A DNA stretch of 64,000 nt from a virus (IMGVR_UViG_3300046096_000285:1-64000); one strand, 5' to 3'; shown: positions 38,016-55,770, counted from the first letter of the stretch. A program made the numbers and translations. Notes: generated by a model not told the origin, from the sequence alone.

Positions 38016-38321
38016 ATGAGAAGTTTAGAGATCCACGTATTCGAGACCGATGCCGATTTGGATAGCGGCGTGCTTGGCGGCCTGCTGACCGTCGAGGACC
38101 TAGATGCCGTAGCATGCACTGCGTGCTTGGACGAAGTCGGACACACTAACGGATCCTTCGTAAGCTACACGACTGTGCTTGATGACGTCGATCAGTGGTA
38201 CCTTTGCATTCCATGTACTGGAGCAGTACTCGAGCCATCAGCTGCAGCGATCGATGAACCGATCTATCTTCTTGACGTCGACGACGAGGAATTCGAAACT
38301 TTCGACCTAACGGATGACTAG
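38016..38321 (+). CDS. acidic zinc-finger-like protein
   Basis: CTAC...CIPC; leaderless start. Confidence 0.65.
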   Translation: MRSLEIHVFETDADLDSGVLGGLLTVEDLDAVACTACLDEVGHTNGSFVSYTTVLDDVDQWYLCIPCTGAVLEPSAAAIDEPIYLLDVDDEEFETFDLTDD

Positions 38322-38503
38322 CTAGTAGCTCAGCTCCTTCCCAACTTCCAACGAAGCCTGGGACCTGAATGCTGAATTTAGTCCCGTATTCATTTTTTCA
38401 ATACACGTATTCATTTTTTCACAAGAGCAAAACACCCGCTGCGTGATTTGACTCGCCGAACCTTTTCTGCTAAGTTTGACCTAAGCAATGAAAGGACGGA
38501 AAA

Positions 38504-39034
38504 ATGCACGTTGCGCACATACTGCTTGTTCAAGCAGACTCAGCAGAGGACGCCTTTGAGAGGGTCGAAAGCGAACTATCACCAACTGACTATGGAGTTC
38601 GACCAGAGTGGTCAGACTGGCACAATGCCAACAACTCAGCAGAGATGAACTTTGCTGGTCGTTGGACTGGTTCATTCTTCAAGAGCGATAAAGAGGACGA
38701 GCCAAACCCAAACCACCTTTGCTACGCAGATGACAAGGCGCTCGCAGAAAGTGTTATCTCTGACCAGTTAGCCATGCGTGACGCGGAGATTGCCAACATT
38801 AGAAAGAACATGGTTTCAGACCTTTCTACTGTCACAATCAACCACTACGCAGAAAAGTGGAACATGGATTACTGGTATACCCAGAAGTTCCTCAAGTTGG
38901 CAGATAACGAGTGGACTCCAGACTCATACATTTATGACCTAGAAACCAGCACAGCGTCACTTCACTGGTTCATGGAGCGTGTCATGCTCGTGCCAAAGAA
39001 GCAGTTTCTGGTTCCTGTGGACTTCCATTATTAG
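38504..39034 (+). CDS. cassette gene, hypothetical
   Basis: AAGGACGG RBS; WSDW...AGRW...FLVPVDFHY. Confidence 0.8.
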   Translation: MHVAHILLVQADSAEDAFERVESELSPTDYGVRPEWSDWHNANNSAEMNFAGRWTGSFFKSDKEDEPNPNHLCYADDKALAESVISDQLAMRDAEIANIRKNMVSDLSTVTINHYAEKWNMDYWYTQKFLKLADNEWTPDSYIYDLETSTASLHWFMERVMLVPKKQFLVPVDFHY

Positions 39035-39063
39035 AAGTGGAGAAGTGGTGATACACTTTTCTT

Positions 39064-39519
39064 ATGAAATCAATAGACAGATTTACAACTAAATACAAAA
39101 TCAATCTAGAAACAGGCTGCTGGGACTGGATAGCAGGGACATCGGCTGGGTATGGAGCGTTCGCGTACGAGCGCGGCAAAAAAGCCCATAGATTCTCGTA
39201 CGAATACCACAACAACACCATTCTCGGCGAACTGACTATCGACCACTTATGTAGGAATACACTGTGCGTAAATCCAGAACACTTAGAGGCAGTACCTAAG
39301 GGGGAGAACTCTAGGCGCAGAAATCTCAACCACACCTATAAGAAAAAAGAAGTCTGTAAGAATGGACACTTCATAGGAAAAAATGAATACGTCAGACCAG
39401 ATGGCTACTCTGAGTGCCTACTATGTAGGAGTGATAGAGGTAAGGCTTATAGGGAGAAGCATGGAGACGAGCATAGAGCCAAACTTCGTAAGTATTACCA
39501 CGACAAAAAAAATAAATAA
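39064..39519 (+). CDS. HNH homing endonuclease
   Basis: GCWDW...GYGAF...AHRFSY...DHLCRNTLCVNPEHL; leaderless; AT-rich. Confidence 0.92.
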   Translation: MKSIDRFTTKYKINLETGCWDWIAGTSAGYGAFAYERGKKAHRFSYEYHNNTILGELTIDHLCRNTLCVNPEHLEAVPKGENSRRRNLNHTYKKKEVCKNGHFIGKNEYVRPDGYSECLLCRSDRGKAYREKHGDEHRAKLRKYYHDKKNK

Positions 39520-39608
39520 AAAACTTTCAAAATAGACTTGACACTTCGAACGAATGGTGTAAAGTTATCAGTAGGTGGAAATCACCACCCAAAAAGTAAG
39601 GACGGAAA

Positions 39609-40079
39609 ATGACAACAATCGTTGAGCCAGTAGTCGAGACAGGTAAGCCAGCAATCGCTGGTGTTGGTATCTATCTCGAACTCGTGCCAAAGGGCGACAA
39701 CCCACACAACAAGACCACCCAGATTTTGTTTACCCCACAAGGTATGACAGAAAAGGGTCAGCCAGTAGGACTCGCCATGATTTCTCGTGAGGTCTCAACT
39801 TGGTCGCCACGCAAGCAATGGAGGCACAACTTCTCTCGCTTGACAGCAGAGCAAGAAGCACTCGCACCAGCAGACCAAGCACTCGCACTAATCGCTCGTT
39901 TCGAGACTTCTCTCAAGCGTGAGATTTACTATGGCTACGAACTACGCAACAAGCCAATCGTTTTCGAAGTTACCAACCTAGACCTCGCCGAGGTTCTGGA
40001 CTGGAAAGCACCTGCTTCGGCACTACGCCGAATCCAAAAGGCACGAGTATCTCTCGGCTTTCCAGAGAAGTTAGTTTAG
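39609..40079 (+). CDS. cassette gene, hypothetical
   Basis: AAGGACGG RBS, promoter at 39538. Confidence 0.75.
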   Translation: MTTIVEPVVETGKPAIAGVGIYLELVPKGDNPHNKTTQILFTPQGMTEKGQPVGLAMISREVSTWSPRKQWRHNFSRLTAEQEALAPADQALALIARFETSLKREIYYGYELRNKPIVFEVTNLDLAEVLDWKAPASALRRIQKARVSLGFPEKLV

Positions 40080-40102
40080 TCAAGGAATAGGACGGAAAAA
40101 TC

Positions 40103-41143
40103 ATGACTACAACCACAGCAACCCCAGCACCAGCAACACGCTCAATGGACACCATTGAGGTAGACGAACTGTTCGCCAATCTGACAGGTATGCTTTTCAG
40201 CGTGGCTGTTCAGGACAAGGACGCAAGTCTCAAGTCTCCAAATCTCGACTCCCTAATGCCACCTGCCGCTCGTGCTAATCTTAGAGCAAAGGCTGGCACA
40301 GGACAGGTAAAGGTAGCGAAGAAGTCAATGGTCAATGTTGAAGCACTAGAGGGTGTCGAGAAGTATCCTCGCCCAAATGGTCAGGATTACTACGCTCGCC
40401 CTTGGGGTGAACACACAGACATCGAGGTTCTCCGCAAGGCTCGAACTGCTGACCAGTTTGTTCTCCTCTATGGTGCGCCCGGAACTGGTAAGACTGCCGC
40501 TGTTGAAGCAGCGTTCCCAGACGAACTTTACACAGTCTTGGGTTCAGGCGACACCGAAGTTTCTGACCTCGTTGGAGGGTATGTTCAGACTCCAAGTGGC
40601 GGCTTCGAGTGGGTGGACGGTTCTCTCGTTCGCGCCGCCGAAGAGGGTAAGGTTCTTCTCATTGACGAGATTGGTCTCATTGACCCAAAGGTCTTGTCAA
40701 TCGTTTATGGTCTCATGGACGGACGCAGGGAATACACCGTCACAGCGAACCCAGAGCGCGGAACTGTCAAGGCGAAAGAGGGCTTCTATGTAATCGCCGC
40801 GACTAACCCAAATGCCCCAGGAGTTCGCCTATCAGAGGCGTTGCTATCTCGCTTCTCACTCCAAGTTGAAATGACAACTGACTGGGGTCTTGCCAAGAAG
40901 TTGGGCGTTCCAGTAATCGCTGTAACTGCCGCGCAGAACCTTGCGAAGAAGCAGAGCAATGGAGAAGTTTCTTGGTCTCCACAAATGCGTGAGTTGCTCA
41001 ACTTCAAGACAGTCTCGACCTTGTTTGGTTCGAAGTTCGCTGTCGAGAACCTCGCAGGTTCAGCACCAGAACTTGACCGTTCTGTTGTGGTAGATGTTCT
41101 GACCCGAGTGTTCGGCGAAGAAGTCAAGCCAGCCAAGATTTAG
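40103..41143 (+). CDS. MoxR/CbbQ-type AAA+ ATPase
   Basis: GAPGTGKT, DLVGGY, WVDGSL, LLIDE, AATNP, EALLSRF. Confidence 0.9.
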   Translation: MTTTTATPAPATRSMDTIEVDELFANLTGMLFSVAVQDKDASLKSPNLDSLMPPAARANLRAKAGTGQVKVAKKSMVNVEALEGVEKYPRPNGQDYYARPWGEHTDIEVLRKARTADQFVLLYGAPGTGKTAAVEAAFPDELYTVLGSGDTEVSDLVGGYVQTPSGGFEWVDGSLVRAAEEGKVLLIDEIGLIDPKVLSIVYGLMDGRREYTVTANPERGTVKAKEGFYVIAATNPNAPGVRLSEALLSRFSLQVEMTTDWGLAKKLGVPVIAVTAAQNLAKKQSNGEVSWSPQMRELLNFKTVSTLFGSKFAVENLAGSAPELDRSVVVDVLTRVFGEEVKPAKI

Positions 41144-41264
41144 CAACACCGTCCGTTGCTAATCGGGGAGTGTCAAAAAAGTTTTCGAATGGACTTGACA
41201 CTCCCCACCCACTTATGCTACTTTGTTGGTAGGACGAAACACCAACACGAATAAAGGACGAAAC

Positions 41265-43037
41265 ATGGCACACTTATCTAGACTCTCAACTCGCACGAGT
41301 TCAACTCCTGTCGAGTGGCTCAAGACCTGTTCACACATTGGCGAAGTTGCTAATGCTTGGGCTGGTCGTGGAGACCTTGCTGTCTACGCTGGCGAGGACG
41401 CTGGCATGGGCGAGGCACTTGCTTGCTTCATTATCGAGACAGCAGAAATCGAAATCAACCTACCAAAGGCTTTTGGCAAGGCGACCACTCCAGAAATGGT
41501 TGGCGACCTACGCTTGCGCGAAGTTCAGTATGACTGGGCAGAGCCAGTTGGCGTTATCTATCACGAGGCACTTCACGCTCGTTACACCACTTGGAACATG
41601 GAGGCACTCAAGGAGAGTCCAAAGGTCGAGATTGACGCTTTCATGTTGCTAGAGGAGTCACGCATTGAAGCACGAGGCGCACGACTAATCCCAAGTAACA
41701 AGTTGTTCTTGCGCTCGTCTGCCCTTGGTCTCTCGATTGGTGACATGGCAGAGGCTGTCAAGGACATGAGCGAGGTCTGGGCGACTGCCAACCTCGCAGG
41801 TCTGGCACTTGCTCGTGTAGACGCTGGCGTTCTCGAAGCGAGTGATGTCACGATTATCGAGGGCAAGGTTCTCGAGATTCTGGGCGAGGACTTGCTTGGC
41901 AAGTTGCGTTCAGTCTGGGTTCGCTTTCAGGCACTAGAGACTTCACAAATGGAACAGGGCAAGGCACTCGCTCAAGAGTGGGTCGAGTTGCTACGCGAGG
42001 CAGACCCAGAGGGCGAACCTCAAGAGGGTGGCGCAGGTGGCGCAATGTCACAGGCACTCCAAGACTTGATTGACGCGCTTGGCGAGGCTGCTGGCGATAC
42101 TGCTGTTCAGGTCTCGATTGACATGGGCGACCAGCAGGATTCAGAGGAACGCAAGGCAGAGGCAGAGGAACGCGCCAAGGAAAGCAAGCGACAGAACGAC
42201 AACAAGCAGGAGTCGCGCGAAGTGTTCACTCGCTCGAATGGCTCGACTGGTTCTGGGTCAGATTCACGACTCCAAGAACAGCGCAACCCAACTGGACACG
42301 AACGCGCCGCCGCTGTTCAGATTGCCAAGATGTTGGAAAAGGCAAAGTATCGTGAACGCTCGCTCACCGAAATCAAGAGCCACGCGCCACAGGGTCGCCT
42401 CAAGGCTCGCGTTGCTATTCAGAACGCCGCCGCGAAGTCGCGTGGAGTTCGTGAGACACAGCCAGCGTGGGTCGCCAAGAAGCGCAAGCACACAGACGAC
42501 CCGAACCTAAGCATTGGTGTCATGGTGGACATTAGCGGCTCAATGAGTTCGGCAATGGAGGCAATGGCAACTACGGCGTGGGTCATGGGAGAAGCAGGTC
42601 GCCGCGTTCAAGCCAAGACCGCAATGGTCTACTTCGGCTCGGGAGTGTTCTCGACTCTCAAGGTCGGTCAGAAGTTGGACAAGGTTTCGGTCTACTCCGC
42701 GCCAGACGGAACGGAGAAGTTTGACAAGGCGTTCAAGGCACTAGACGGCGAGTTGAACCTGACCTACGGCGAGGGTGTTCGTATGTTGGTCGTTGTATCA
42801 GACGGACAGTTCACCAGCGTAGAAATGGAAAAGGCTCAAGCCGCGGCTCGCCTTTGTGACCGCAACGGAGTCGCGCTTCTTTGGATTACGCCAGAGGCTT
42901 GCTGGAGTGGCAAGGGTCAAGCCTTGCTCAACGGCACGAGCGGCGTGGTTCTGGACAAGATGAAAACAGACGAGATTGCGCTCGCTATCGGTAAAGCCGC
43001 CGCCGAAGCACTCGGTAAGGTGGGTTCAAAGTTCTAG
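41265..43037 (+). CDS. VWA (CobT-like) partner protein with HExxH motif
   Basis: HEALH, LLEESRIE, DISGSM (MIDAS), VVSDG; start at ATG after AAGGACGAA. Confidence 0.85.
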   Translation: MAHLSRLSTRTSSTPVEWLKTCSHIGEVANAWAGRGDLAVYAGEDAGMGEALACFIIETAEIEINLPKAFGKATTPEMVGDLRLREVQYDWAEPVGVIYHEALHARYTTWNMEALKESPKVEIDAFMLLEESRIEARGARLIPSNKLFLRSSALGLSIGDMAEAVKDMSEVWATANLAGLALARVDAGVLEASDVTIIEGKVLEILGEDLLGKLRSVWVRFQALETSQMEQGKALAQEWVELLREADPEGEPQEGGAGGAMSQALQDLIDALGEAAGDTAVQVSIDMGDQQDSEERKAEAEERAKESKRQNDNKQESREVFTRSNGSTGSGSDSRLQEQRNPTGHERAAAVQIAKMLEKAKYRERSLTEIKSHAPQGRLKARVAIQNAAAKSRGVRETQPAWVAKKRKHTDDPNLSIGVMVDISGSMSSAMEAMATTAWVMGEAGRRVQAKTAMVYFGSGVFSTLKVGQKLDKVSVYSAPDGTEKFDKAFKALDGELNLTYGEGVRMLVVVSDGQFTSVEMEKAQAAARLCDRNGVALLWITPEACWSGKGQALLNGTSGVVLDKMKTDEIALAIGKAAAEALGKVGSKF

Positions 43038-43270
43038 GATTCCACTAGCGCAACGGTAGGCTTTCGGGTTCGTTCATGCCCGCCTCCTTTCCCTATCGGC
43101 TACTGGATAGAGACCCTCGACAGATTCGTCCCTGTCGGGGGTTTCGCACTTTCGGCGAGCGCAGGTCGTATTCATTTTTTCATTCTGTCTTTCGACTTCT
43201 GACGAAAGATGTTTGACACTCGTTTGAAGTATGCTAAGTTTGAACTATTCCTAGAAAGGGGAAAACAGAA

Positions 43271-44197
43271 ATGCCAAATCACGTTTGGAACAGCATTGGG
43301 GTTTCAGGGGCTATCGCTGACATTGAAGCGTTCGTTGCTAAGGCTGGCAAGCCACACATTACAGAGTTCAAGGGCAAGCGTTATCAGGACGAAACTGGCG
43401 CTTGGAAGTATGACCCAGAGATTATTGACACCCACGAGGACACAGACCCATTCTCATTCTGGAACTTCATAAAGCCAGACGACGAGATTCTTCCTGTCTA
43501 CTTTGGACACGAGAAGTCAGAGAAGCCAGAGGGCTACGAGGGCTGGGACTTCGCGGAGAAGATGGCGCACGACCTCAAGTTCACAGGCAACAACGCATAC
43601 GACTGGAACGTTCGCAACTGGGGAACCAAGTGGGACGCATACGACCAGACCTTCGACGGCGTGACAACTGACGAAGCGATTGGAAAGGCGAGTGCGACTT
43701 ACAGTTTCAATACGGCGTGGAGTATCCCAGTTCCAGTATTTGAAGCACTCTGCGAACAGCACCCAGAGTTGAGTTTCTCGTTTGAGTCGGAGGAGGAACA
43801 GGGCTGGGGCGCGACTTACGAGTCAAGCGCGGTAGACGACCCAGAGGACGGCGAGCCTACATCCGCACTACTTCTCATCAGCGAGTGGGACATCCCTGAG
43901 AGCCACGCAGAGTTGGTAGCCCGAGGGCGAGAATGCCACTGCGAGTATGACGACGACGAGGACTCGTGGTATGACGACTGCCCTCGTGAAGAACGAGTGT
44001 TCACCGTTGTCGTTGAGCAGACTTTCGTGGTCAAGGCGACGGACGCAGAGAAGGCTTGGGAACTTGCCGAGGAACACCTCAACAAGCCGATTGAGAACTT
44101 GCCAGAGGGAGTCGAGCAGTCGGATGAGTATTCGCTGTTCGTCAAGAACCCAGAGACTGGCGAGCGTTTGTATCCGACACTCGGAGGGGGTGAGTAG
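43271..44197 (+). CDS. DUF1281/YubB-like acidic protein
   Basis: MPNHVWN...YDWNVRNWGTKWD...FNTAWS.P. Confidence 0.75.
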   Translation: MPNHVWNSIGVSGAIADIEAFVAKAGKPHITEFKGKRYQDETGAWKYDPEIIDTHEDTDPFSFWNFIKPDDEILPVYFGHEKSEKPEGYEGWDFAEKMAHDLKFTGNNAYDWNVRNWGTKWDAYDQTFDGVTTDEAIGKASATYSFNTAWSIPVPVFEALCEQHPELSFSFESEEEQGWGATYESSAVDDPEDGEPTSALLLISEWDIPESHAELVARGRECHCEYDDDEDSWYDDCPREERVFTVVVEQTFVVKATDAEKAWELAEEHLNKPIENLPEGVEQSDEYSLFVKNPETGERLYPTLGGGE

Positions 44198-44443
44198 CGT
44201 GGCAACACCAAAGACACCGAAGCCGAAGATGGGCAACGGCGCAACGACTCGTCTGACAGACGGACGACGCAAGTAGCAGAGGGAGAGGGCGAAAGCCCTC
44301 TCTTTTCTTTTGCCCCTCGTATTCATTTTTTCGTCATTGCCACGCCGATACACGCCGCGATTTGACACGAGTTTGGAATAGGGTATAGACTACGAGAGTA
44401 GTCAACGAGGAAATGCCTCGACTACACAAAGGAGGGGATTGAA

Positions 44444-44836
44444 ATGGCAACTGCCGAACTTCAATCAGCACAGGTTGCTAAGGCGACCACCAGCATTACC
44501 AGCACCACAGAGGACAACCTAGTTGTTCTAACCCCTGCGATTCAGAAGCAGGTCAAGGCACTACGCGAGGCTCGCAATGTAGCGAAGCAGGCAAAGGCTC
44601 TAGGGGATACAGCACGAGACGTTATCTTGGAGTTCGTGGGGGAGACCACCACCAACCTCGTGGGCGTGGACGCAAAGGGCAAGCGTTTGATTAGCCTCAA
44701 GTTGATTCCAAGTTCAGAGAGTTTCGACTGGGCACGACTTCAACTTCAGCAGCCTGAGTTGTTCGAGATGCTCAAAAAGGAATACACCATTCCTCGTGGG
44801 GCAGGCGCACCAACTCCACGAGTGGACACGATTTAG
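44444..44836 (+). CDS. cassette gene, paralog of 48451-48777
   Basis: coiled coil then FDWARLQLQQPELFE. Confidence 0.75.
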   Translation: MATAELQSAQVAKATTSITSTTEDNLVVLTPAIQKQVKALREARNVAKQAKALGDTARDVILEFVGETTTNLVGVDAKGKRLISLKLIPSSESFDWARLQLQQPELFEMLKKEYTIPRGAGAPTPRVDTI

Positions 44837-44999
44837 TCCACTCACGAAAGTCGCTGGCGAGAGTTCCCCTCTCTCGCTGGCGATTTTTTGTATGGAGGCT
44901 GTATTCATTTTTTCATTAGATCCATAACTTCCAACGAATGGTTTGACTTGGAGATAACAAACTGGTAAAGTGGAAGTAACTCAACCAAAGGGGATTCAA

Positions 45000-45452
45000 A
45001 TGAGAACCAGAGAATACGACCTCAACGTTTACGTCACAGATGGCGTGGCACGTTTGTCAGCATACGAATACACATATAGCGACAGCGACGACCCTCAGCC
45101 AAATGGCACAGAGATGAGCAAGTTCGTCACGTTGGAAGTTCCAATGGACAAAGCACACCACGACGAAGTGGCGTTTCTACTGAGCGACGAGGACTGGCAA
45201 GACTCACCAGTGGCAGACTGGCAGGACTACGACAGCCCATGGGAAAACTTGGCGTGGCTAGAGACAGCACCGGCAAGCATAAGAGCGTGGGGAGACGCGC
45301 TCGCGGAATACGAGCCGACCACTCAACACGAGTGGGAACTCTACACAATGGACTTGAAATACGGCGAACGGCGAGACGTGAAGTGCCTCAACTGCGACGC
45401 GACATACCCTATCTACCGTTTGACATGGGAACAGATGACGGCTAAGGTGTAG
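45000..45452 (+). CDS. cassette gene, acidic hypothetical
   Basis: AAAGGGGATTCAA-ATG. Confidence 0.75.
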   Translation: MRTREYDLNVYVTDGVARLSAYEYTYSDSDDPQPNGTEMSKFVTLEVPMDKAHHDEVAFLLSDEDWQDSPVADWQDYDSPWENLAWLETAPASIRAWGDALAEYEPTTQHEWELYTMDLKYGERRDVKCLNCDATYPIYRLTWEQMTAKV

Positions 45453-45454
45453 GT

Positions 45455-45679
45455 ATGAGAAAAGACATCAAGCAACTACGGATACTCGCAGAGCAACAAG
45501 GCTGGAGAGTAGAGCGCACTAACGGCGACCACTTACGGTGGCTCGCGCCAGAGGGTGGCATGGCTATCTACTCGGCAAGCACACCGTCTAATGCTCGCGG
45601 AATACTCAACCTCAGAGCGCAACTGCGTAAAGCGGGTCTACATTTAGAGAAGCACGGCAAGCAAAAGGTGAACGCATGA
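45455..45679 (+). CDS. HicA-like small protein
   Basis: AEQQGWRVERT.GDHLRW...STPS...NLRAQLRKAG. Confidence 0.6.
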   Translation: MRKDIKQLRILAEQQGWRVERTNGDHLRWLAPEGGMAIYSASTPSNARGILNLRAQLRKAGLHLEKHGKQKVNA

Positions 45680-45972
45680 AACTGTATCGGCAAGCACTAG
45701 GCGAGGTTCTGCGCGAAGCAAGAACGGTGAGGGGTCAGACCCTGCGACAAGTCTCAACGGCTGCCTCGTGCGCCCTCGGATACCTGTCGGAGTTGGAGAA
45801 CGGACACAAGGAAGCGTCCTCGGAGATTTTGGAGGGGCTTGCCCGTGCGCTCAAGGTGACGGTGAGTGAACTCGCTATCCGTGCTGGCTTGCGTATAGCG
45901 GAGGAGAGTATCCCTGATACCCCTGCCGAACTCTACGAGGAAGCACCGGCCCTCATTCCTCACCGAGGATAG
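45676..45972 (+). CDS. XRE HTH regulator, ClgR-like
   Basis: LGEVLREAR..GQTLRQVS...LGYLSELENGHKEASSEIL. Confidence 0.8.
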   Translation: MKLYRQALGEVLREARTVRGQTLRQVSTAASCALGYLSELENGHKEASSEILEGLARALKVTVSELAIRAGLRIAEESIPDTPAELYEEAPALIPHRG

Positions 45973-46086
45973 CCTCGGGTGGTAACCCCGTATTCATTTT
46001 TTCAACAACCGACACGGCGAGCGCAATACTTGCTTGACGGCTTGCCGTAGGGTATAGTTGGACTATCCAATGAAAGGGGTTGCCAA

Positions 46087-46482
46087 ATGGCAGAGAACAT
46101 CACAACGGCGGGGCTAGTAGCCACCACACCAAGATACCTAGTCACGGCAGACGGCTTGCCGATTACTTCATTCCGGCTTGCCACAACTTCAAGAAAGTTT
46201 GACGCGCGAACTGGCGAGTGGGTTGACGGCGAGGCTAACTGGTATACCGTTACCGCCTTCCACGACTTGGCTATCAATGCGGCAAGCAGTATCGAGAAGG
46301 GTCACCGTATTGTCGTTCAAGGCGCGGTTAGAGTGCGCGACTGGGATAACGGCGAGCGAAGCGGAACATCCGTAGAGATTGAAGCCGAGGTCATAGGTCA
46401 CGACTTGAGTTGGGGAACCGCTGTGTTCACCCGAACCGTCTTGACTCGTAGGGTAGAGAAGCCAGAGACCGTGGGGGTATAG
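46087..46482 (+). CDS. ssb: single-stranded DNA-binding protein (no acidic tail)
   Basis: ITSFRLA...WVDGEANWYTV.AF..LA.N...KGHRIVVQG...IGHDL. Confidence 0.9.
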   Translation: MAENITTAGLVATTPRYLVTADGLPITSFRLATTSRKFDARTGEWVDGEANWYTVTAFHDLAINAASSIEKGHRIVVQGAVRVRDWDNGERSGTSVEIEAEVIGHDLSWGTAVFTRTVLTRRVEKPETVGV

Positions 46483-46658
46483 AGACCTTACCGAACAGAT
46501 AGAGAAAACGCGGGAACTTGCTATCCCGCGTTTTTTCATAGTCGGGGTCGTATTCATTTTTTCAACCGGCACGACACTTCACACTAAGATTTGGAAGTTG
46601 GCACGGAAAGTGGTAAGGTTGAACTATCACCGAAGACAAGGGTGAGAAAAGGGAAGAG

Positions 46659-46959
46659 ATGAACGAGATAAAGATTTGCCCAAAGTGTCAGGGCTACATC
46701 CCAAACAACAAGACACCGGGGGCATACTCAGGCGCGATTTCACGCCGAGACAACAAGACAGAGATTTGTTCGGCTTGCGGAACTCATGAAGCGTTCGAGG
46801 ACCTTTTCGCGAAAGAGCGAGTCAATGGCTAAGGCAGAGTGTTACGACTGTGACGCGGAAATTGAAGTCGAAGACTCAACCTATGTCCACCCCTTGTGCG
46901 CTGAGTGTCAGAACGAAGCAGACGACTGGCTACAAACACAGATGTTGCTAATGAACTAA
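46659..46959 (+). CDS. two overlapping small zinc-finger ORFs (46659-46832, 46825-46959)
   Basis: CPKC...GAISRRDNKTEICSACG; CYDC...CAEC; below track cut-off. Confidence 0.65.
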
Positions 46960-47133
46960 AAGTCACGCTCACCGAAAGGTGGGCGTTTCTTTTACGCCGC
47001 ATCGCGTATTCATTTTTTCACCAACACAGTGGCGATTACTCACAACAACTCACGAATGATTTGATTTTGTCCTAGCAGGGTGATAAGTTTGATTTGTTGC
47101 CGAAGTTCAGTAAGCAACGAAAGGGGCAACAAA

Positions 47134-47463
47134 ATGGGTAACAGGGCTTGGATTCAGATTTCAGCAGAGCAGTTTGAAACACCTATCAGCCTTTATGGTC
47201 ACTGGTCGGGCGAGGACAACCTCACCGCCGTAGTCAAGACCCTAGAGAGTTCAACACGCATTGGGGATGTGTCATACCTCACAGCACAGATTTTCTTCCA
47301 CTTCACGCAACTAGGTGGCTACACAGGCGACACAGGGTTTGGCATTTCGACAGGCGAAGCCCCTAGCGTAGACGATGTGGACACCGTTTATGTGAACGCT
47401 GATAATGGTGAGTATACTTATCAGGGCGTAACTCACCACGAGTTTGCGCTAATGAAGGCTTGA
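47134..47463 (+). CDS. cassette gene, hypothetical
   Basis: GAAAGGGG RBS; MGNRAWI...LYGHWSG. Confidence 0.8.
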   Translation: MGNRAWIQISAEQFETPISLYGHWSGEDNLTAVVKTLESSTRIGDVSYLTAQIFFHFTQLGGYTGDTGFGISTGEAPSVDDVDTVYVNADNGEYTYQGVTHHEFALMKA

Positions 47464-47706
47464 GTCGAGGTCGAGTCCACCACTCCCTTGATTCATTGGG
47501 TTAGGGTTAGCCCCCTTTCCCTAACCCCGAACGCCAGTAGATAATCCCCTTATCTACTGGCGTTCACCATTTCTCAGGGATACGAGGCGTATTCATTTTT
47601 TCCTCGAGCTCAGACACGACGCAACAACTCACGAATGATTTGACTTGATACGAGTTATGTGTTACTTTTGTATTGCCTTTGAAAAGGCAGAAAGATAAGG
47701 GGCAAC

Positions 47707-48114
47707 ATGGAAAAGGTATTAGAGATTCGCAAGTTTGAGATTAGCTCAGACTGTTCATGCGAGGTATACGACGAGGACACAGACACGTCTTCACCAAGCG
47801 ACGAGTGTTTCAACTGTTTCGCCGACGACAAGGATAATTTCAAATACGTGATTCTTCAGCCATGGCTTGAGGCTAATGGTTGGGATGAGGACACAGTTGT
47901 TTATGTGTTCAGCGCGAACATGAACTGGAATCACGTCGCGGGATGGACAAACGTCTACGCGAGAGAGGCTATCGACTGCCTAACTTTGAATGGCGAGTTT
48001 ACCCTTAGTTACAAGTTGGATGGCAAGAACTTGACTTGCGTTCGTTCAAGCCACGACGAACATGGCGCGTTGTTCACGTTCAGTGAGGCACAGAAGGATT
48101 ATCGCGATGAGTAA
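47707..48114 (+). CDS. cassette gene, acidic hypothetical
   Basis: GATAAGGGG RBS. Confidence 0.8.
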   Translation: MEKVLEIRKFEISSDCSCEVYDEDTDTSSPSDECFNCFADDKDNFKYVILQPWLEANGWDEDTVVYVFSANMNWNHVAGWTNVYAREAIDCLTLNGEFTLSYKLDGKNLTCVRSSHDEHGALFTFSEAQKDYRDE

Positions 48115-48271
48115 CCTAGTGTTCACCGGCCCTCGCGCCGTTCTCTCTCAGTTGTCTGCCGATTCGACAGTCATGTTCTCTCAGTTGATAGAGGATGACG
48201 AGTTGGTCGCGATGGTGTTAGCCAAGAAGCCATACGACACGTTGCTTGAATACGTGAACGAAAACTACTGA
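48107..48271 (+). CDS. cassette gene, small hypothetical
   Basis: overlapping start MSNLVFT. Confidence 0.6.
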   Translation: MSNLVFTGPRAVLSQLSADSTVMFSQLIEDDELVAMVLAKKPYDTLLEYVNENY

Positions 48272-48450
48272 GTCACGACAGGGAAGCCCCGCGGAAACGC
48301 GGGGTTTCTTTTTGCCCGCGGGAAGTCGCCGTATTCATTTTTTCAGCGAGCCTAGAGCCGACACGCTTAGGATTTGGTGTTTTTTGAAATAGGGGGTATC
48401 ATTGACTTATGAAGTCAATAAGGCTTCACTAAATAGAAGGGGGTCGCCAA

Positions 48451-48777
48451 ATGGCTACCAAGATTCAGAAGGCAACCGCGGTTGTCACCGAGGCTCGCAA
48501 GGTCTCAAAGGTTGTTGTTGCTAACGCCGAGCGTCTAGCGTTCGTTCGTGCCGAGGTTATTCGTCTAGAGGCAGAAGCCAAGCTCTTGCGCGATGGGCTT
48601 ATCGCGGTTGCCGATGGCGCAACTACTCTTGTCCACAACAACATCGCCATCGTTGAGATTTCACCACGCTCAACCTCACGCGTAGACTCGAAGGCGTTGA
48701 AGGTTATGTTTCCTGAAGCATACGAGGCAACACTCAAAGTCACCGTATCACCTGTCGTGGATGTTCTGAAGCGATAA
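48451..48777 (+). CDS. cassette gene, paralog of 44444-44836
   Basis: coiled coil then RVDSKALKVMFPEAYE. Confidence 0.8.
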   Translation: MATKIQKATAVVTEARKVSKVVVANAERLAFVRAEVIRLEAEAKLLRDGLIAVADGATTLVHNNIAIVEISPRSTSRVDSKALKVMFPEAYEATLKVTVSPVVDVLKR

Positions 48778-49001
48778 ACGCCACGAGGAAGCCCCCTAGG
48801 ATTCTCTAGGGGGTTTTTCCTTACCCTAAACACGCCAAGCCCGCCACGAGGCACACAGCCCCGCCACGAGGGCGTATTCATTTTTTCGTCAAAACACGCC
48901 AGCTGAGGATTTGATTTGACAAGTGTCCGGCTTATGGATAAGATTTAGTTATAACTAAATAGATGCACCACTCAATGCACCACCAACCTAAGGGGATTCA
49001 A

Positions 49002-49331
49002 ATGGCAACTATGGCACCTGCTACCAACACCACTACCAAGTTCGACCTAGGCGCGACTCTAGACGAGCCGACCACCGCATCAGTCGTCACCGAGGTCGAG
49101 AAGTTCGACAACACTATGGTCTATGCCAAGACTTCACTAGAGATGTTCGTTAGCGCGGATAACGTGGATGACACAGTCTACCTTGACCTTCGCCAACTCA
49201 ACTTTGTACGACTGGGCCCAACCGACGAAGAACAGATGCACGTATTCACCACCTTGCTCAACCACCGCTTCACTCGCGAGCAGGCCGAGGCACTGGTCGC
49301 CACGTTCACTCACGAACTCGCGAAACTCTAG
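49002..49331 (+). CDS. cassette gene, hypothetical
   Basis: AAGGGGATTCAA-ATG. Confidence 0.75.
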   Translation: MATMAPATNTTTKFDLGATLDEPTTASVVTEVEKFDNTMVYAKTSLEMFVSADNVDDTVYLDLRQLNFVRLGPTDEEQMHVFTTLLNHRFTREQAEALVATFTHELAKL

Positions 49332-49484
49332 CGAGCGCGACAAGCCCCTGTCGAAAGGCAGGGGTTTTGTCATTCCCCGGCTGTATTCATTTTTTCACAA
49401 GAAGACACAGGAGTGGGCTGAGATACTATGTTTTGTCCGAGGGGTTTGATAAAATGGGAGTATCCAAATGAAAGGGGATAAAGA

Positions 49485-49841
49485 ATGACAAACTACAGCG
49501 ACGTGGAAGTTGCTCTTGAGAACGCTAAGGCGATTGCTTGGGACACCTGCCACAAGATTTACGTTCTAATGGATGACGAGCAAGTTGAGAAGATGCGCGA
49601 GTACGAGTACGACCCTCTAATCACGAGCGACGAGATGGACCCTAGCGAAATGCTGTCCACGATTCAAACTTGGTATGAGGACTCTTGCGGATTGCGTTTC
49701 GTAGAAAGCGTCACCACAAATCACGAAGACCCTAACCTTGGGTTTGAAAGTCTGATTCCACAGGGCGCGGATGACGAAGATGACGACACCGACGAATCTG
49801 AAGACGACTACTTCGATGACGAGGATGACGAAGATGAGTAA
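49485..49841 (+). CDS. cassette gene, very acidic protein
   Basis: AWDTCHKIY...SCGLRF; D/E tail. Confidence 0.8.
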   Translation: MTNYSDVEVALENAKAIAWDTCHKIYVLMDDEQVEKMREYEYDPLITSDEMDPSEMLSTIQTWYEDSCGLRFVESVTTNHEDPNLGFESLIPQGADDEDDDTDESEDDYFDDEDDEDE

Positions 49842-50034
49842 GTTCGCGTTCAACCTAGTTCTCAAGACTGATTACATCGAAGCAGAGAACATCGAAGAAG
49901 CAGAGAAGTTGCTGAACAAGTACATCGATGGGCTGGCTATGGTTGGTGAGCCTGAGATTACTTGGGACGAAGTTGACTGGCAGACCTTTGAAGGCGACCT
50001 AGTAATCAAAGACTTTAGTTCGCCCCTCAACTGA
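49834..50034 (+). CDS. cassette gene, small acidic protein
   Basis: overlapping start MSKFAF. Confidence 0.65.
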   Translation: MSKFAFNLVLKTDYIEAENIEEAEKLLNKYIDGLAMVGEPEITWDEVDWQTFEGDLVIKDFSSPLN

Positions 50035-50199
50035 GCACGAAGAAGAACGCTCTCGAAAGAGGGCGTTTTTTCTCAGGCCCGTTGTATTCATTTTTTCAAC
50101 TGGCGACACGGGGGGTTGGTCGAAAGTTGCGAAGGTTTGTCGAAAGTAGTAAAGTAGTTCTGTTGGCAAAAGCCAGCGTAAAGGGATAAGGGGTTTGAA

Positions 50200-50424
50200 A
50201 TGAAGTTTGTAGTTCGTAGAGCAGTCATTGGAGTTCTAGCAGTTCCAGCAGTAGCCGGTGCGTATGTGTTTGGGTATCTAGGTCTGTTGCTTCTAGGCGC
50301 GGAGGGTGCGCTCAAGATTGAAGAAATCTGGAACAATGGAATGTTGATTGGTGGCGTGTGTGCCGTAATGCTCGTGTTCGCGCCACAGGTAAACAAGTTC
50401 CTCGACAGGGTTACTGGAGAGTAA
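50200..50424 (+). CDS. cassette gene, two-TM membrane protein
   Basis: two hydrophobic helices; GATAAGGGG RBS. Confidence 0.75.
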   Translation: MKFVVRRAVIGVLAVPAVAGAYVFGYLGLLLLGAEGALKIEEIWNNGMLIGGVCAVMLVFAPQVNKFLDRVTGE

Positions 50425-50650
50425 AAGACTTGGCAGGGTTTATCCCCCTATCCCCTGCCCAAGAAAAGAGCGTGACCATTCCGCTCACGGCTAGGCACTT
50501 CCCCCAAGTGTCTAGCCTTTTTCTTTGCTCGGAAGTGTATTCATTTTTTCACCCTGCGACACGCGGATACAGATTGGATTTGCGCTCGCCGAGGATTTCC
50601 TGTAATGTAGTTCTTGTAGCCAGCAAGGGGTTGGCAGACAAGGGGTTCAA

Positions 50651-50808
50651 ATGCTAAAGACTTCAACAGCCGAGTGCGTAGATTGCGCGGTTGCTATCAC
50701 CAGCGACAACACGCAAGACGAGGGTGGAAAGTTTGCTTCACCACAGGGGGAATACGCTATCTGCGACAACTGCGCCAATGCTCGCATTGACGCTTACCTA
50801 GAGAACTA
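50651..50808 (+). CDS. cassette gene, small zinc finger
   Basis: CVDC...CDNC; AAGGGG RBS. Confidence 0.6.
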
Positions 50809-50821
50809 AGGGGCAGGGAAA

Positions 50822-51046
50822 ATGGCCGACTCAATGAAAGGTTCTGGGATTGACTCCGAGGACTACACCGCTTGGTTCTTTTGCTCACATTGTGACGAGG
50901 AACTGGAACTTGATGGAAAGTCAGACGACTATGGGATTATTGCGACAGCCGAGTGTCCTAAGTGCCGTTCAACCCTAGAGGTTGAAATGCCTAGCAAGGA
51001 ACAGTTGCGCGAGGACTACCTAGCCGACTACGACCCAAACAACTAA
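50822..51046 (+). CDS. cassette gene, acidic zinc ribbon
   Basis: CSHC...CPKC. Confidence 0.7.
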   Translation: MADSMKGSGIDSEDYTAWFFCSHCDEELELDGKSDDYGIIATAECPKCRSTLEVEMPSKEQLREDYLADYDPNN

Positions 51047-51291
51047 ATAGACTTACCTAGCGCGGGCAACTTCGCTAGGTGGGAGAGAACCGAGTAACCC
51101 CCTTGCTCGTGCGACTCCGAAAGAGCCAGACACTAATCCCCTTGTGTCTGGTTCTTTTGTTTCTACGGTGCTATTCATTTTTTCAGCAAGACTCCCCCGG
51201 GCGTGTCGATTTGCGCCACCCTGGTTGGGGTGCTACAGTTGATACTGTAGTCAGGAAGCAGATAGCGGAGGGCTACACGCAAGGGGAAGAA

Positions 51292-51627
51292 ATGTCTTCA
51301 ATCATTACTGTTCCAGTTCAGTTCCAGGCCGAGGACTTCTGGAGTGAAATCATGGGTTCAGCCTGGGAGACCTGGGACTGGTGGGTGACCCTGGACTACA
51401 GCCAGGGCGCGTCCTGGGACAAGGTTGGCGAAATCACCGTTACATCCTGGGACGGCGAGACCGAGGGCGAGACCCTAGTCACCAAGACCCTCACCATCCA
51501 GGACCTGGCTGAGTCTTACGGCAAGTGCCTGGCCGAAGGGTTCCGAATCAACATCCACGACCTGGACGCCGGCCAGGGCGACGTCATCCTTCAGATGGCA
51601 ATGTTCGGAGAAGTCGTCTACGGATAG
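51292..51627 (+). CDS. cassette gene, acidic hypothetical
   Basis: start MSSIIT after AAGGGG; DAGQGDVILQMAMFGEVVYG. Confidence 0.8.
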   Translation: MSSIITVPVQFQAEDFWSEIMGSAWETWDWWVTLDYSQGASWDKVGEITVTSWDGETEGETLVTKTLTIQDLAESYGKCLAEGFRINIHDLDAGQGDVILQMAMFGEVVYG

Positions 51628-51664
51628 TTTCACCAGGACGCCCCTCGGCAGAAATGCCGGGGGG

Positions 51665-51715
51665 TTTTCCACAGCCTGTGGAAAGTTATCCACAGACTTA
51701 TCCACATGTGGATAA
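51665..51715. promoter_or_regulatory. cluster of DnaA boxes
   Basis: TTATCCACA at 51686 and 51698, TGTGGATAA at 51707 (perfect); TTTTCCACA at 51665 and TGTGGAAAG at 51677 (near). Confidence 0.85.
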
Positions 51716-51860
51716 CTTTTTTTGGAGAGGTCTATTCATTTTTTCGTCAAACGACACGCACTTACGGAGACGATTTGACAGCTGCCAAAAACCCGAGTAG
51801 GCTTACTAATGTAATCAGGAAGCCAAGGGGGCGGAGGGTTACTGAAGGGGTGGGGTTCCA

Positions 51861-52199
51861 ATGGGACTTCTTATCAGCGTGTATCGGTCGGACTACGACA
51901 GCAAGGCAAATGTTTTCCACGGAAAGCGTCAGCTAGTTCTCGTGAATGTCGAAGGGCCATTCCAGCCATCAGACAACGCACCAGCTGCCAAGTTGGTTCA
52001 GGGTCACGGTAAGACCGCAATCATCGTGCCAGCGGACGAAGGCTTTGACGGCGTTCAGATGAACGGCGGAACTTACGGCTCAACCAGCGACAGTCGCTTT
52101 CAGCGAGCCGTAGAGGGACTAGTCGGAGTCTCACACTTTGCGGTGGCAATCCACGACCGTCGTGAGTCGTGGGCGGAATACGAGCAGTTCAGCCAGTAG
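51861..52199 (+). CDS. cassette gene, hypothetical
   Basis: MNGGTY.STSDSRF...VAIHDR. Confidence 0.8.
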   Translation: MGLLISVYRSDYDSKANVFHGKRQLVLVNVEGPFQPSDNAPAAKLVQGHGKTAIIVPADEGFDGVQMNGGTYGSTSDSRFQRAVEGLVGVSHFAVAIHDRRESWAEYEQFSQ

Positions 52200-52354
52200 G
52201 CAACCAAGCGAAAGGCTCACCCGAAGGGGTGGGCTTTTTTCTTGCTCGTTAGTCTATTCATTTTTTCATCCGGATGCGGGGAAGCTTGCGCGGTTCGTTG
52301 GAAGTTGGTAAAGTTGGAGTATCAACCAGATTGGTTGAAGATAAGGGGCTTCAA

Positions 52355-52702
52355 ATGGAAAAGATTGGTTTGGTAGTGGACTCGGAGTTCACCGCGTCTG
52401 TGACCAGGTTGTCACTCAAGGAACTACAAGCTGCGGTCGATGGTCTGATTCAGCCGATTGACATTCGCGAGGGCTTGACTATGTGGGTAAACGAGGAGTT
52501 CTTGTTTCGCTCAGAACCAGACGCAAACGTTTTGGCTAGTGCGTTCTTCGCTGAGGCTGGTGGAAAGTATGACATCCACGGAACTGTCGTCTTCACTGGT
52601 GGCACGGATGAGGATGGCAACACTCTCGGGCTGTCAGACGAGCACCGCGAGTTAGTGGAGTCGCTCTGTAAGTTCGGGATTGGCGTTCGCGAAATGGCTT
52701 AG
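52355..52702 (+). CDS. DUF3846-like protein
   Basis: LKELQAAVDGLIQ...MWVNEE...N.LAS...I.GTVVFTG..DEDG. Confidence 0.8.
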   Translation: MEKIGLVVDSEFTASVTRLSLKELQAAVDGLIQPIDIREGLTMWVNEEFLFRSEPDANVLASAFFAEAGGKYDIHGTVVFTGGTDEDGNTLGLSDEHRELVESLCKFGIGVREMA

Positions 52703-52874
52703 ATTTCAAAAAAGGAAAGTCCGGCTTCGGTCGGGCTTTTTCTTTTTCTCGGGGCTATTCATTTTTTCCTTCAGCTCGCAGACAACACACGGAAGTTCGT
52801 GGGAAGTTGCGTAGGCAGGGCGTTTCGATTAGGCTTAGGTCATAAGCCAAATGGTTTGGCGAAAGGGGATTCAA

Positions 52875-53108
52875 ATGGCAACCAAGAACGCGAACGCAGA
52901 TTTCGTTTTCGAACTCGTTATGAAGATGGCGGGCGGGGCGGACAAGTATTCAATCCACACTCAGGGCGCAATCTGGGCTGAGTGTCAGCGCAACTCATCA
53001 CTACAAACGCTAGCGGGAATGTATCTCGTTGGTTCATCAGCACGCGCAGAGAACAACCTAAAGAAGTTGCGCTCTGCCGTTTACTCAACATTCCTAGAGA
53101 GGAACTAA
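52875..53108 (+). CDS. cassette gene, hypothetical
   Basis: GAAAGGGGATTCAA-ATG. Confidence 0.7.
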   Translation: MATKNANADFVFELVMKMAGGADKYSIHTQGAIWAECQRNSSLQTLAGMYLVGSSARAENNLKKLRSAVYSTFLERN

Positions 53109-53110
53109 TA

Positions 53111-53338
53111 ATGGCAATGTCATACGGAGAGCGTAAAGCGCAAGCAATCGCTAGGCGTAATGCGGAACTACTCACGCGAGATTCTATGTTGGAGATTCGC
53201 AGTATTCTAAGTCCAATGCCCTACGCGCCTAAGTCGGTGCTAGAGGGCGTGCCGTTCGTAATAGAGAACTTGACCCCAATGGAATTAGATGTGGAGTTCG
53301 TGGGCGACACAATCACAATCAAAGAAGCGGTGCGCTAA
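53111..53338 (+). CDS. cassette gene, hypothetical
   Basis: GAGG RBS, MAMSYGE. Confidence 0.65.
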   Translation: MAMSYGERKAQAIARRNAELLTRDSMLEIRSILSPMPYAPKSVLEGVPFVIENLTPMELDVEFVGDTITIKEAVR

Positions 53339-53467
53339 TGCGGGCGTGGCACTTGCTCAAGTATCGAACTTGGCGCGTGGTCGGTTCGCTGGCGTTCGGT
53401 CTGTATCACCGCTCTGCTCAATGGTCTCACGAAGCGTTCGTGCGGGCTGGCAAGTCTGGTGCGGACA

Positions 53468-53635
53468 ATGACTAGGGGCGAGAGTCTGGCTGTTCTTTTA
53501 CGCTCGGTGGCTGGCGGTCTGGGATTTGTCTGGCTGTTTGGTTTTGCCGTTGGCTGGCAAGACCCTGTATCGCCGTTCGTTGTTTCCACACTTGCCGTTG
53601 GATTCTTGTGGGGTGCGTGGCGCGTGGGTCGTTAG
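53468..53635 (+). CDS. cassette gene, small two-TM protein
   Basis: MTRGESLAVLL...GFLWGAWRVGR; below track cut-off. Confidence 0.5.
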   Translation: MTRGESLAVLLRSVAGGLGFVWLFGFAVGWQDPVSPFVVSTLAVGFLWGAWRVGR

Positions 53636-53775
53636 TGACCCCGCGTTCGCGCTTGCGTGCGGACTATTCATTTTTTCCCTAATCCCCCTGCGGGCACACG
53701 GATGATTTGACTTTCATTTGCGGAGTAGGGTAGGCTAGTCGTAGACCAGCCAAGGGGGCTGGGGAGAGGGGCATC

Positions 53776-53925
53776 ATGATTCACATCTTCTGTGCGGACT
53801 GCGACGGCTGGGACTCGTTCCCATCTGGCGGGTCACACAACTGCGAGACCGTCGAGTTCGTTACCAACCCATCCGCTGGGTTCATCGGTGGCGACTGCTG
53901 GTTCGGGGACGACTCGGACTACTAG
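53776..53925 (+). CDS. cassette gene, small Cys/Asp protein
   Basis: GAGGGG RBS; CADC. Confidence 0.55.
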   Translation: MIHIFCADCDGWDSFPSGGSHNCETVEFVTNPSAGFIGGDCWFGDDSDY

Positions 53926-54119
53926 GCGAAAGCCTAGCCAACCCCTCACCTTCGGGTGGGGGGTTTCTTTCTGTTCGTGAGAAGTTGTCTGTGCGGGAGT
54001 GCTATTCATTTTTTCCCTAGGCGACACGCTTGCGGGGGGTATGATTTGACTTTGCCGGAGGATGTGTTAGGCTAGTCCTAGGACAAGCCAAAGGGGCTTG
54101 CCAGAAAAGGGGATTCAAA

Positions 54120-54290
54120 ATGTTCGGTCAGACTTTCTCAGGAATCGAAATCACTGTTCGCGAAGCAAACGGCTCAATCGTATGTGCGCCAACCTACGAA
54201 GCACACACCACGGCGAAGCAGTTGGAACTTATCAACGCAACCAAAGCAATGCTTACCGCTGGTCGCTCAATCACTTGGCGTTTGTTCTAA
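54120..54290 (+). CDS. cassette gene, small hypothetical
   Basis: AAAAGGGGATTCAAA-ATG. Confidence 0.6.
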   Translation: MFGQTFSGIEITVREANGSIVCAPTYEAHTTAKQLELINATKAMLTAGRSITWRLF

Positions 54291-54465
54291 GCCAACTTCC
54301 AACGAAGCCCGTCACCTCGGTGGCGGGTTTTGTTTTGCCCTGTGGGTCTATTCATTTTTTCGTCAAGTCGGGCATGCGGGTGACACGATTTGATTCGCGC
54401 ACCGTAAAGTGCTAAGCTCATGGGTAGAGCTTCAAAGGGGGGCTCAATAGTTCAAAGGGGTATTT

Positions 54466-54615
54466 ATGTTTGGGTTCAACGAGTGCGCACACTCTGAGTC
54501 GGAATCGTATGGCACTAGCCAGATTCATTGGGATGACCGCTCTGCGGGTATCGGCTGGGTTCAAGCTCCGTGCGCTGAGTGCGGGGAATCGCTAACATGG
54601 GTTATCAACGCATGA
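54466..54615 (+). CDS. cassette gene, small hypothetical
   Basis: AAAGGGG RBS; CAEC. Confidence 0.5.
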   Translation: MFGFNECAHSESESYGTSQIHWDDRSAGIGWVQAPCAECGESLTWVINA

Positions 54616-55358: not shown

Positions 55359-55527
55359 CTCTACTCGGGAACCCCTGCTTCGGCGGGGGTTTTCGCATGT
55401 GCGGGGGAGCTATTCATTTTTTCCTGCTCTGCAACGAGTGCGGGCGTGATTTGACAAGTTTCGAATAGCTGATAGGATTTAGTCATAACTAAATAGCTCC
55501 AATTAACCGACAACCAAAGGGGACAAC

Positions 55528-55770
55528 ATGTCAACAGCAACAACTACCGCTAGCTTCTTCGTGCTAGCCGTCTCAACCAAGGGTGAGCTGCGCTTCACCC
55601 GTGGCAACAGCTTCGTTACTCGCGGTGCTGCAACCTTCGAAGCTTCTCAGAGCAACAAGCTCACTGAGCACCTTCGTGCTCAGGGATGGGACACTAGCTA
55701 CAAAGTGTTCTCTGCCGATGAGCTCAACGCCCTGGGTGCGCTAGGTATTCGCATCGGTGAAGCCTACTAG
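55528..55770 (+). CDS. cassette gene, hypothetical
   Basis: AAAGGGG RBS. Confidence 0.7.
   Translation: MSTATTTASFFVLAVSTKGELRFTRGNSFVTRGAATFEASQSNKLTEHLRAQGWDTSYKVFSADELNALGALGIRIGEAY

Follow-up and report, generated by a model that had tools for sequence, protein, structure and literature searches.

Do the messages of a phage carry, at their own 3′ ends, the sequences that close their ribosome-binding sites (RBSs)? This question is raised by a 64,000-nucleotide stretch of DNA from an uncultured lake phage (IMGVR_UViG_3300046096_000285:1-64000; the window, below), for which an initial annotation, made from the sequence alone, had proposed that each of a series of gene cassettes ends in a hairpin loop complementary to its own RBS and covarying with it. 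We find that the feature is specific to a gene trio consisting of an open reading frame (ORF) at 39609-40079, an AAA ATPase gene and a vWA/CobT-like gene. The trio would form two transcription units with hard-wired 'anti-RBS' loops in their 3′ regions, one comprising ORF 39609-40079 and the AAA ATPase gene and the other the vWA/CobT-like gene, and both are probably self-masking messages that limit their own translation by pairing of the kind described for icaR mRNA. An IMG/VR contig of 73.8 kb (~44% complete), originating from freshwater metagenomes, begins with the 64 kb of the window, and the nearest named relative of the phage is Actinomycetia phage DSL-LC01.

Two units with loops complementary to their own RBSs

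The elements of the two units are as follows, with Shine-Dalgarno abbreviated as SD.

39600-39611, plus strand: RBS (GGACGG core) and start codon of the first gene of the first unit (ORF 39609-40079, 156 amino acids, no family)
40090-40095, plus strand: SD core GGACGG of the AAA ATPase gene (RNAduplex with the loop at 41148-41154, -12.0 kcal/mol)
40103-41143, plus strand: AAA ATPase gene (AAA_5, MoxR/CobS-like; 346 amino acids; Pfam PF07728, E = 1.4e-23; PHROG 16448 and 249)
41140-41162, plus strand: hairpin TTAGCAAC-ACCGTCC-GTTGCTAA (fold -13.6 kcal/mol) whose 5′ arm includes the AAA stop codon (41141-41143)
41165-41206, plus strand: second hairpin of the AAA-vWA spacer, GGGGAGTGTCAA...TTGACACTCCCC, a 12-bp perfect inverted repeat
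41226-41245, plus strand: leader hairpin, weakly folded, whose loop AGGACGAAAC (41231-41240) duplicates the SD 10-mer
41255-41264, plus strand: SD region AGGACGAAAC of the vWA/CobT-like gene (RNAduplex with the loop at 43124-43131, -10.8 kcal/mol)
41265-43037, plus strand: vWA/CobT-like gene (590 amino acids), with a DISGS (DxSxS, metal-ion-dependent adhesion site-like) motif read from the sequence
43114-43141, plus strand: terminator-like hairpin with loop ATTCGTCC (43124-43131; fold -25.3 kcal/mol, z = -4.7, loop fully unpaired)

In the first unit, the hairpin loop ACCGTCC is complementary to the GGACGG of both upstream RBSs (39600 and 40090), giving a 6-nt pairing of CCGTCC at 41149-41154 with either 40090-40095 or 39600-39605. 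The unusual RBS GGACGGAA, at 38494, 39600 and 40090, is common to three consecutive genes (38504, 39609 and 40103). The 3′ arm of the second spacer hairpin contains a -35-like TTGACA box preceding the vWA gene, and its inverted repeat is kept in two relatives (L134 and L135). Many relatives have, in the loop of this second hairpin, a complement to the start region of the first gene, and the loop at 41165-41206 in the window has no such match.

In the second unit, a 7-nt pairing joins TTCGTCC at 43125-43131 with GGACGAA either in the SD (41256-41262) or in the leader-hairpin loop (41232), and in both the window and DSL-LC01 the leader site rivals the SD for the same 3′ loop. A Pfam search of the 590-amino-acid protein gave no match, and its homologue in DSL-LC01 is annotated as 'cobalamin biosynthesis protein'. 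Also in the 3′ untranslated region (UTR) of this gene is CCTCCTTTCC (43083-43092), similar to the 3′ tail that bacterial 16S rRNA usually has; over 8 nt it is complementary to AAAGGAGG, the canonical SD of the cassette at 44444.

Covariation in related phages

The protein encoded at 41265-43037 retrieved 76 relatives from IMG/VR (40-61% identity), of which 56-57 non-redundant loci were tested by comparing the longest Watson-Crick match between each gene's own RBS window and its own 3′ region with that of permuted pairings. Own matches were longer for the vWA gene (7.70 vs 6.31 nt permuted, z = 8.4, p < 5e-5; z = 8.2-8.4 over the tests made) and for the AAA ATPase gene (7.37 vs 5.99 nt, z = 9.7), and the RBS of the first ORF matched the spacer behind the AAA gene with z = 11.6. 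The cross pairs (vWA SD with AAA 3′ region, AAA SD with vWA 3′ region) were null in the same loci. Matches of at least 8 nt were present in 25 of 53 loci for vWA and 20 of 51 for AAA (2.3 and 2.2 expected, same-genome null); 1,189 other genes of the same genomes gave 34 such matches against 51.8 expected. These other gene ends were also at or below expectation for double matches and when RBSs from upstream cistrons or neighbouring genes were taken in place of the gene's own. Covariation in related phages, which the initial annotation had suggested as a check, is therefore borne out for its first two cassettes (z = 8-12, first ORF included).

The paired sequences themselves are diverse, with 24 distinct types for AAA and 31 for vWA, and the matches track the private flanks of each gene's own RBS and not its shared core. 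Pairing extends to 12 nt in L138 and to 14 nt in L155, in which CAAAGGACAAACAA faces TTGTTTGTCCTTTG and the complementarity of the loop to the RBS reaches the first base of the start codon. Compensatory changes separate sister phages, with AGGACGAA and TTCGTCCT in L129 replaced by AGGACTAA and TTAGTCCT in L137, and GACACCCAATG and CATTGGGTGTC in L140 replaced by GATACCCATG and CATGGGTATC in L141. In some lineages, among them that of the window, one private RBS sequence and a single loop are common to the first ORF and the AAA gene, and in others each has a separate loop. One clade pairs the vWA 3′ loop with the loop of the leader hairpin and not with the SD, and this pair also covaries (TTCGGAAG with CTTCCGAA vs TTGGAAG with CTTCCAA). 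Among cultured phages, DSL-LC01 carries the vWA loop; the Microbacterium phages Pumpernickel and A3Wally have homologues of the genes and lack the arrangement, their genes being tightly packed or without a recognisable RBS-loop match.

The anti-RBS elements of the relatives are displayed in loops, with an unpaired probability of 0.70-0.77 compared with 0.42-0.43 for their surroundings (p = 2e-6 and 9e-11), and the hairpins are strong (fold z of -3.5 to -6). Their 5′ partner is centred on positions -15 to -5 in 18 of 35 AAA and 21 of 49 vWA cases (160-nt search window, -100 to +60). Loops of at least 6 nt contain 53 anti-SD-like and 5 SD-like words behind AAA and vWA genes, compared with 83 and 92 behind other genes. 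The two genes have distinct architectures: the 5′ arm of the AAA hairpin consists of the last codons and the stop codon, with the anti-SD beginning 0-7 nt past the stop in ~40 of 57 relatives, and in the vWA gene 33-55 nt separate the stop from the loop. RNAalifold returned no consensus for 28 AAA stop-codon hairpins owing to unequal loop lengths and misaligned 3′ arms, and per-sequence folds were used in its place. On this evidence we reject pure chance for the AAA and vWA units, and the pairing is very probably real and selected.

A clade including L159 (13732-13880), L165 (15925-16070) and L172 (16666-16810) has a multi-hairpin 3′ region behind a conserved gene of ~115 amino acids. Its loops are of the CCCCCCTTTCT and CCTTTCCCTT type, anti-SD-like, and the region may be a structured RNA.

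The remaining cassettes of the array

The window contains ~22 plus-strand cassettes between 38.4 and 55.5 kb, usually ordered as terminator hairpin, 13-mer TATTCATTTTTTC, TTTGAC -35 box, leader (often a hairpin), AAAGGGG-type RBS and start codon. Twenty-two cassettes, each defined by its RBS window and 3′ UTR, were used for own-versus-other tests. All motifs listed by the initial annotation are present, at or within one base of where it placed them, and its claim of own-RBS complementarity stands for the AAA and vWA cassettes in more than 50 relatives and falls for the others. The diagonal of the 22 x 22 matrix of longest matches summed to 126 against 120.2 +/- 4.5 for permuted pairings (p = 0.12), and RNAduplex energies of own and permuted pairs did not differ over the 22 cassettes (p = 0.15), only the first cassette, C1, standing out (z = -4.0). 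Against dinucleotide shuffles, the UTRs showed no excess in their best antisense matches to any array RBS (p = 0.11); this shuffled control had been set beforehand as decisive for the array-wide claim. Orthologue families of seven other array genes (C3, C8, C17, C12a, C0a, C10 and C7) gave z values of -0.8 to 1.5. C-rich or RBS-matching loops occur in only 6 of the 22 cassettes, the other 16 ending in GAAA, TTCG or GAAG tetraloop terminators, and 7 array loops contain CCCC compared with 1 containing GGGG.

The C-rich elements in question are the following.

44857-44877, plus strand: terminator hairpin with loop TTCCCCT (TCCCCTC at 44865), not cassette-specific on comparison with L205
47498-47561, plus strand: two hairpins with C-rich loops TTAGCCCCCTTT and AATCCCCTT, complementary to the generic RBS (orthologue family z = 0.5)
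50430-50517, plus strand: hairpins with loops TTTATCCCCCTAT and TTCCCCCAA, without own-RBS specificity in window and orthologue-family tests
51099-51151, plus strand: CCCCTTGC (51099) and a terminator hairpin with loop TAATCCCCTT, containing the match CCCCTTGT (51138), facing the cassette's own leader loop and SD (50619-50645)

Only one relative was found for ORF 44444-44836, and in this orthologue (L205) the C-rich loop ACCCCCCT is kept and the SD is changed to GAAAGGAAA. At 47512 the motif is CCCCTTTC and at 47546 it is CCCCTTATCT, with its counterpart AGATAAGGGG at 47693, 52339 and 55881. The hairpin at 47533-47561 differs from that of L130 by five compensatory stem pairs, the loop staying C-rich without RBS-specific matching. 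The loops AATCCCCTT (47546) and TAATCCCCTT (51138) match the commonest RBS-plus-spacer sequence, AAGGGGATT, of four other cassettes over 9-10 nt and their own RBS over 8 nt. Similarly, TTATCCC/CCCCTATCCC is present at 50440-50454, and the loop at 50440 matches the RBS GGGGATAAA of a neighbouring cassette over 9 nt compared with 7 nt for its own. Cassette 50538-51172 has a double 8-nt match, CCCCTTGC and CCCCTTGT with its own GCAAGGGG (50623) and ACAAGGGG (50638), which is unique among 484 window pairs (0 of 462 non-own pairs). The null rate of such double matches is ~1% of gene-UTR pairs family-wide, and because of this rate per gene the match is not significant after 22 tests; no orthologues of ORF 50822-51046 were found.

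The C-rich loops at 44865, 47512, 47546, 50440, 50502 and 51138 are terminator or 3′-stabiliser hairpins, and their complementarity to G-rich RBSs reflects composition and the shared AAGGGG RBS and not cassette-specific pairing; we accept chance as sufficient for the matches in the remaining cassettes. Such loops call for caution in annotation, as C-rich terminator loops opposite G-rich RBSs resemble regulation yet fail composition-matched controls. The array-wide claim fails, and only the AAA and vWA cassettes are retained, by comparison with relatives.

Function of the pairing and rival explanations

In the proposed mechanism, transcription of the 3′ hairpin would expose a loop that pairs with the SD region, either within the message itself or on a sister copy. 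CCGUCC at 41149 would pair with the GGACGG of both upstream cistrons, and UUCGUCC at 43125 with GGACGAA in the vWA SD or leader-hairpin loop; the paired SD would leave the RBS occluded and translation limited, as in icaR mRNA. We infer that both partners lie on one transcript, a point on which the sequence offers promoter-like and terminator-like motifs, that they pair in vivo and that the outcome is repression, and the last of these, the repressive sign, is the reading towards which we lean. The silencing of the full-length mRNA by itself, suggested in the initial annotation, is the most economical sequence-based reading for the AAA and vWA cassettes and does not generalise to each cassette; nothing was found in support of its suggestion that the product is a toxic early protein.

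Several observations weigh against self-masking. The relatives L131 and L196 have no match. In the window the matches span just 6 and 7 nt (-12.0 and -10.8 kcal/mol), at the low end of the family range, they rank only in the top 22% and 10% of RBSs within the genome, and the two units are barely discriminated, with cross duplexes of -9.1 and -10.3 kcal/mol, 1-3 kcal/mol weaker. The window matches occupy positions orthologous to the elements of the relatives. A comparison of G:U with A:C at helix flanks did not separate RNA-level from DNA-level selection, and a loop-to-linear helix of 6-14 bp could equally tether the ends of the message for stability or ribosome recycling. The DNA-level reading, in which the inverted repeats would be protein or recombination sites, was considered and rejected as unlikely because one arm always lies on the SD and the other in an RNA hairpin loop, and because the sequences differ across nearly all lineages and between adjacent genes.

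The broadest rival, that self-silencing through an own-RBS-matched 3′ loop operates in all promoter-terminator cassettes of 41-51 kb and beyond, with each early protein made in a timed pulse, draws on the excess of C-rich loops (7 with CCCC vs 1 with GGGG), on the unique double own match of cassette 50538-51172 and on the conservation of the 47498-47561 hairpins in L130. It is nevertheless very improbable given the own-versus-other tests (p = 0.12, 0.15 and 0.11), the plain tetraloop terminators of 16 of the 22 cassettes, the seven orthologue families (z of -0.8 to 1.5), the ~1% null rate of double matches per gene and the ~1,190 other gene ends of the relatives, which do not exceed expectation even with upstream-cistron RBSs included, as well as the changed SD opposite an unchanged loop in the L205 orthologue of the 44444 cassette. 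The hairpins might instead outlast mRNA decay as small RNAs (sRNAs), exerting dose-dependent feedback on the mRNA of the same gene or, through generic C-rich loops, acting on AAGGGG-type RBSs of phage or host. The stability of the hairpins, the 9-10-nt matches of AATCCCCTT and TAATCCCCTT to AAGGGGATT in four other cassettes and the fact that the icaR authors leave cis and trans action open (PMC3868564) are consistent with this; Rfam gave no match to 6C, RsaE or another sRNA family, the best UTR match to any RBS was not above dinucleotide shuffles, and the AAA and vWA matches follow private RBS flanks and not the shared core. We therefore regard action in trans as unlikely, and the same shuffle control (p = 0.11) gives no support to 3′-derived sRNAs acting across cassettes, as put forward by the initial annotation.

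A positive role, in which pairing joins the mRNA ends against 5′-end-dependent RNases and 3′ exonucleases or recycles terminating ribosomes to the start, would for the AAA gene have ribosomes at the stop codon melt the hairpin and keep the message open only during translation. Consistent with this, the 5′ arm of the AAA hairpin includes the stop codon, and the anti-SD, starting 0-7 nt past the stop in ~40 of 57 lineages, falls inside the footprint of a terminating ribosome; one clade pairs its 3′ loop with a leader-hairpin loop and not the SD, in the window and DSL-LC01 the SD and a leader site compete for one loop, and the interaction of the 5′ and 3′ UTRs of hbs affects RNase access (PMC5737220). 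In most lineages, however, the 3′ loop has the SD itself, and sometimes the start codon, as its partner, so that pairing must compete with the 30S subunit, and the vWA loop, 33-55 nt past the stop, is outside any ribosome footprint, which makes a positive role distinctly unlikely. We also considered, as a doubtful extension of self-masking, that the private anti-RBS loops are a latch sensing ribosome traffic, such that a message can be translated only as long as translation continues and is locked at the first lull. The AAA anti-SD loop would be kept melted by terminating ribosomes because the hairpin stem contains the stop codon, the threshold would depend on leader decoys, for example AGGACGAAAC with its two copies (41231 and 41255), and cassettes 47134 and 50651 would have a weaker form of the device in their C-rich loops; if true, this would amount to a hard-wired, RNA-only translational timer for part of the early programme.

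Other features of the window

The invariant 13-mer TATTCATTTTTTC occurs in 22 plus-strand copies and 1 minus-strand copy between 38387 and 55423 (0.1 expected), each sitting between a terminator and a TTTGAC -35 box, and the relative L205 has the variant GTATTTATTTTTTCT in its place. A scan of IMG/VR with the 13-mer plus -35 pattern gave single matches only, apparently by chance. Rfam searches over 38-57 kb, with both the gathering threshold and a cutoff of E <= 10, gave no match to 6C, RsaE or another sRNA family. Leader hairpins with an SD-like loop just 5′ of the real SD are found at 41226-41245, 50619-50635, 53746, 54084 and 54428, the last four being the AAGG(G)-loop hairpins already recognised in the initial annotation, and these loops may serve as decoys or standby sites. 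At 51665-51715, the 3′ spacer of cassette 51172-51732 contains several TTATCCACA-type (DnaA-box-like) repeats, including a palindromic one. A phage-borne transfer-messenger RNA gene (105.6 bits) is followed by tRNA genes at 17385-19625, of which ARAGORN calls four (Asn, Gly, Thr and Trp), with one further weak tRNA match at 19549 in Rfam. Comparison of four freshwater DNA runs with 38300-56400 revealed strain variants, and among the rows listed none falls at RBS or loop positions.

Comparison with known systems

Type I toxin mRNAs such as hok fold back on themselves through fbi and tac, the 3′ end pairing with the 5′ region so that the full-length mRNA is translationally inert, and these systems are characterised by small toxic peptides, an antisense RNA and activation by 3′ processing. 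The phage genes differ in encoding proteins of 156-590 amino acids, with no antisense RNA evident; a small toxic ORF with a cognate antisense RNA was looked for as the mark of a hok-like system, and the proteins found are of 346, 590 and 156 amino acids, without an Rfam sRNA family. RsaE, RNAIII and 6C are independent, trans-acting sRNA genes with many targets, whereas the validated loops of the phage are gene-private, with no Rfam match in 38-57 kb. It is C-run hairpin loops that in RsaE, RNAIII and actinobacterial 6C target G-rich SD regions (in part from PMC6158497).

Only a handful of bacterial messages are known to pair their RBS naturally with their own 3′ end over a long range, namely icaR, hbs and one more (PMC12697547). 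In hbs mRNA of B. subtilis, where the ends of one bacterial mRNA pair as proposed here, pairing of the 5′ and 3′ UTRs links translation to RNase access (PMC5737220); the pairing is not an RBS mask in a hairpin loop, and no per-gene covariation series is described for hbs. Also in B. subtilis, anti-SD-like 8-mers placed hundreds of nucleotides downstream of the RBS pair with it, lowering initiation and favouring decay (Gill et al. 2025, PMC12697547). These share with the phage units a complement downstream of the RBS, but they are synthetic insertions of which natural genes are depleted, whereas the phage complement is kept by selection at a fixed place after the stop.

The closest counterpart is icaR mRNA of Staphylococcus aureus, in which a pyrimidine-rich anti-SD, UCCCCUG, in the 3′ UTR pairs with the SD of the same mRNA and blocks ribosome loading, 7 nt being enough (PMC3868564). 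The window genes likewise have a 3′ motif complementary to their own SD (6 and 7 nt, and up to 14 nt in relatives), and the place of compensatory support is taken here by natural covariation (z = 8-12, 24-31 pair types and the changes between sister phages). They differ from icaR in belonging to a double-stranded DNA phage with covariation over >50 lineages, in having one dedicated loop per cistron, or one for two cistrons with identical RBSs, and in the placement of one loop in a hairpin that contains the stop codon. The earlier cases (icaR, hbs and one more) are without deep phylogenetic support, and the gene trio provides dozens of natural compensatory 'experiments' within one phage family. 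Together with the clear architecture (a loop per cistron, one in a stop-codon hairpin) and the cultured relative DSL-LC01, these make the rules of such pairing directly testable, namely its length, the exposure of the loop, cis versus trans action and coupling to ribosome traffic.

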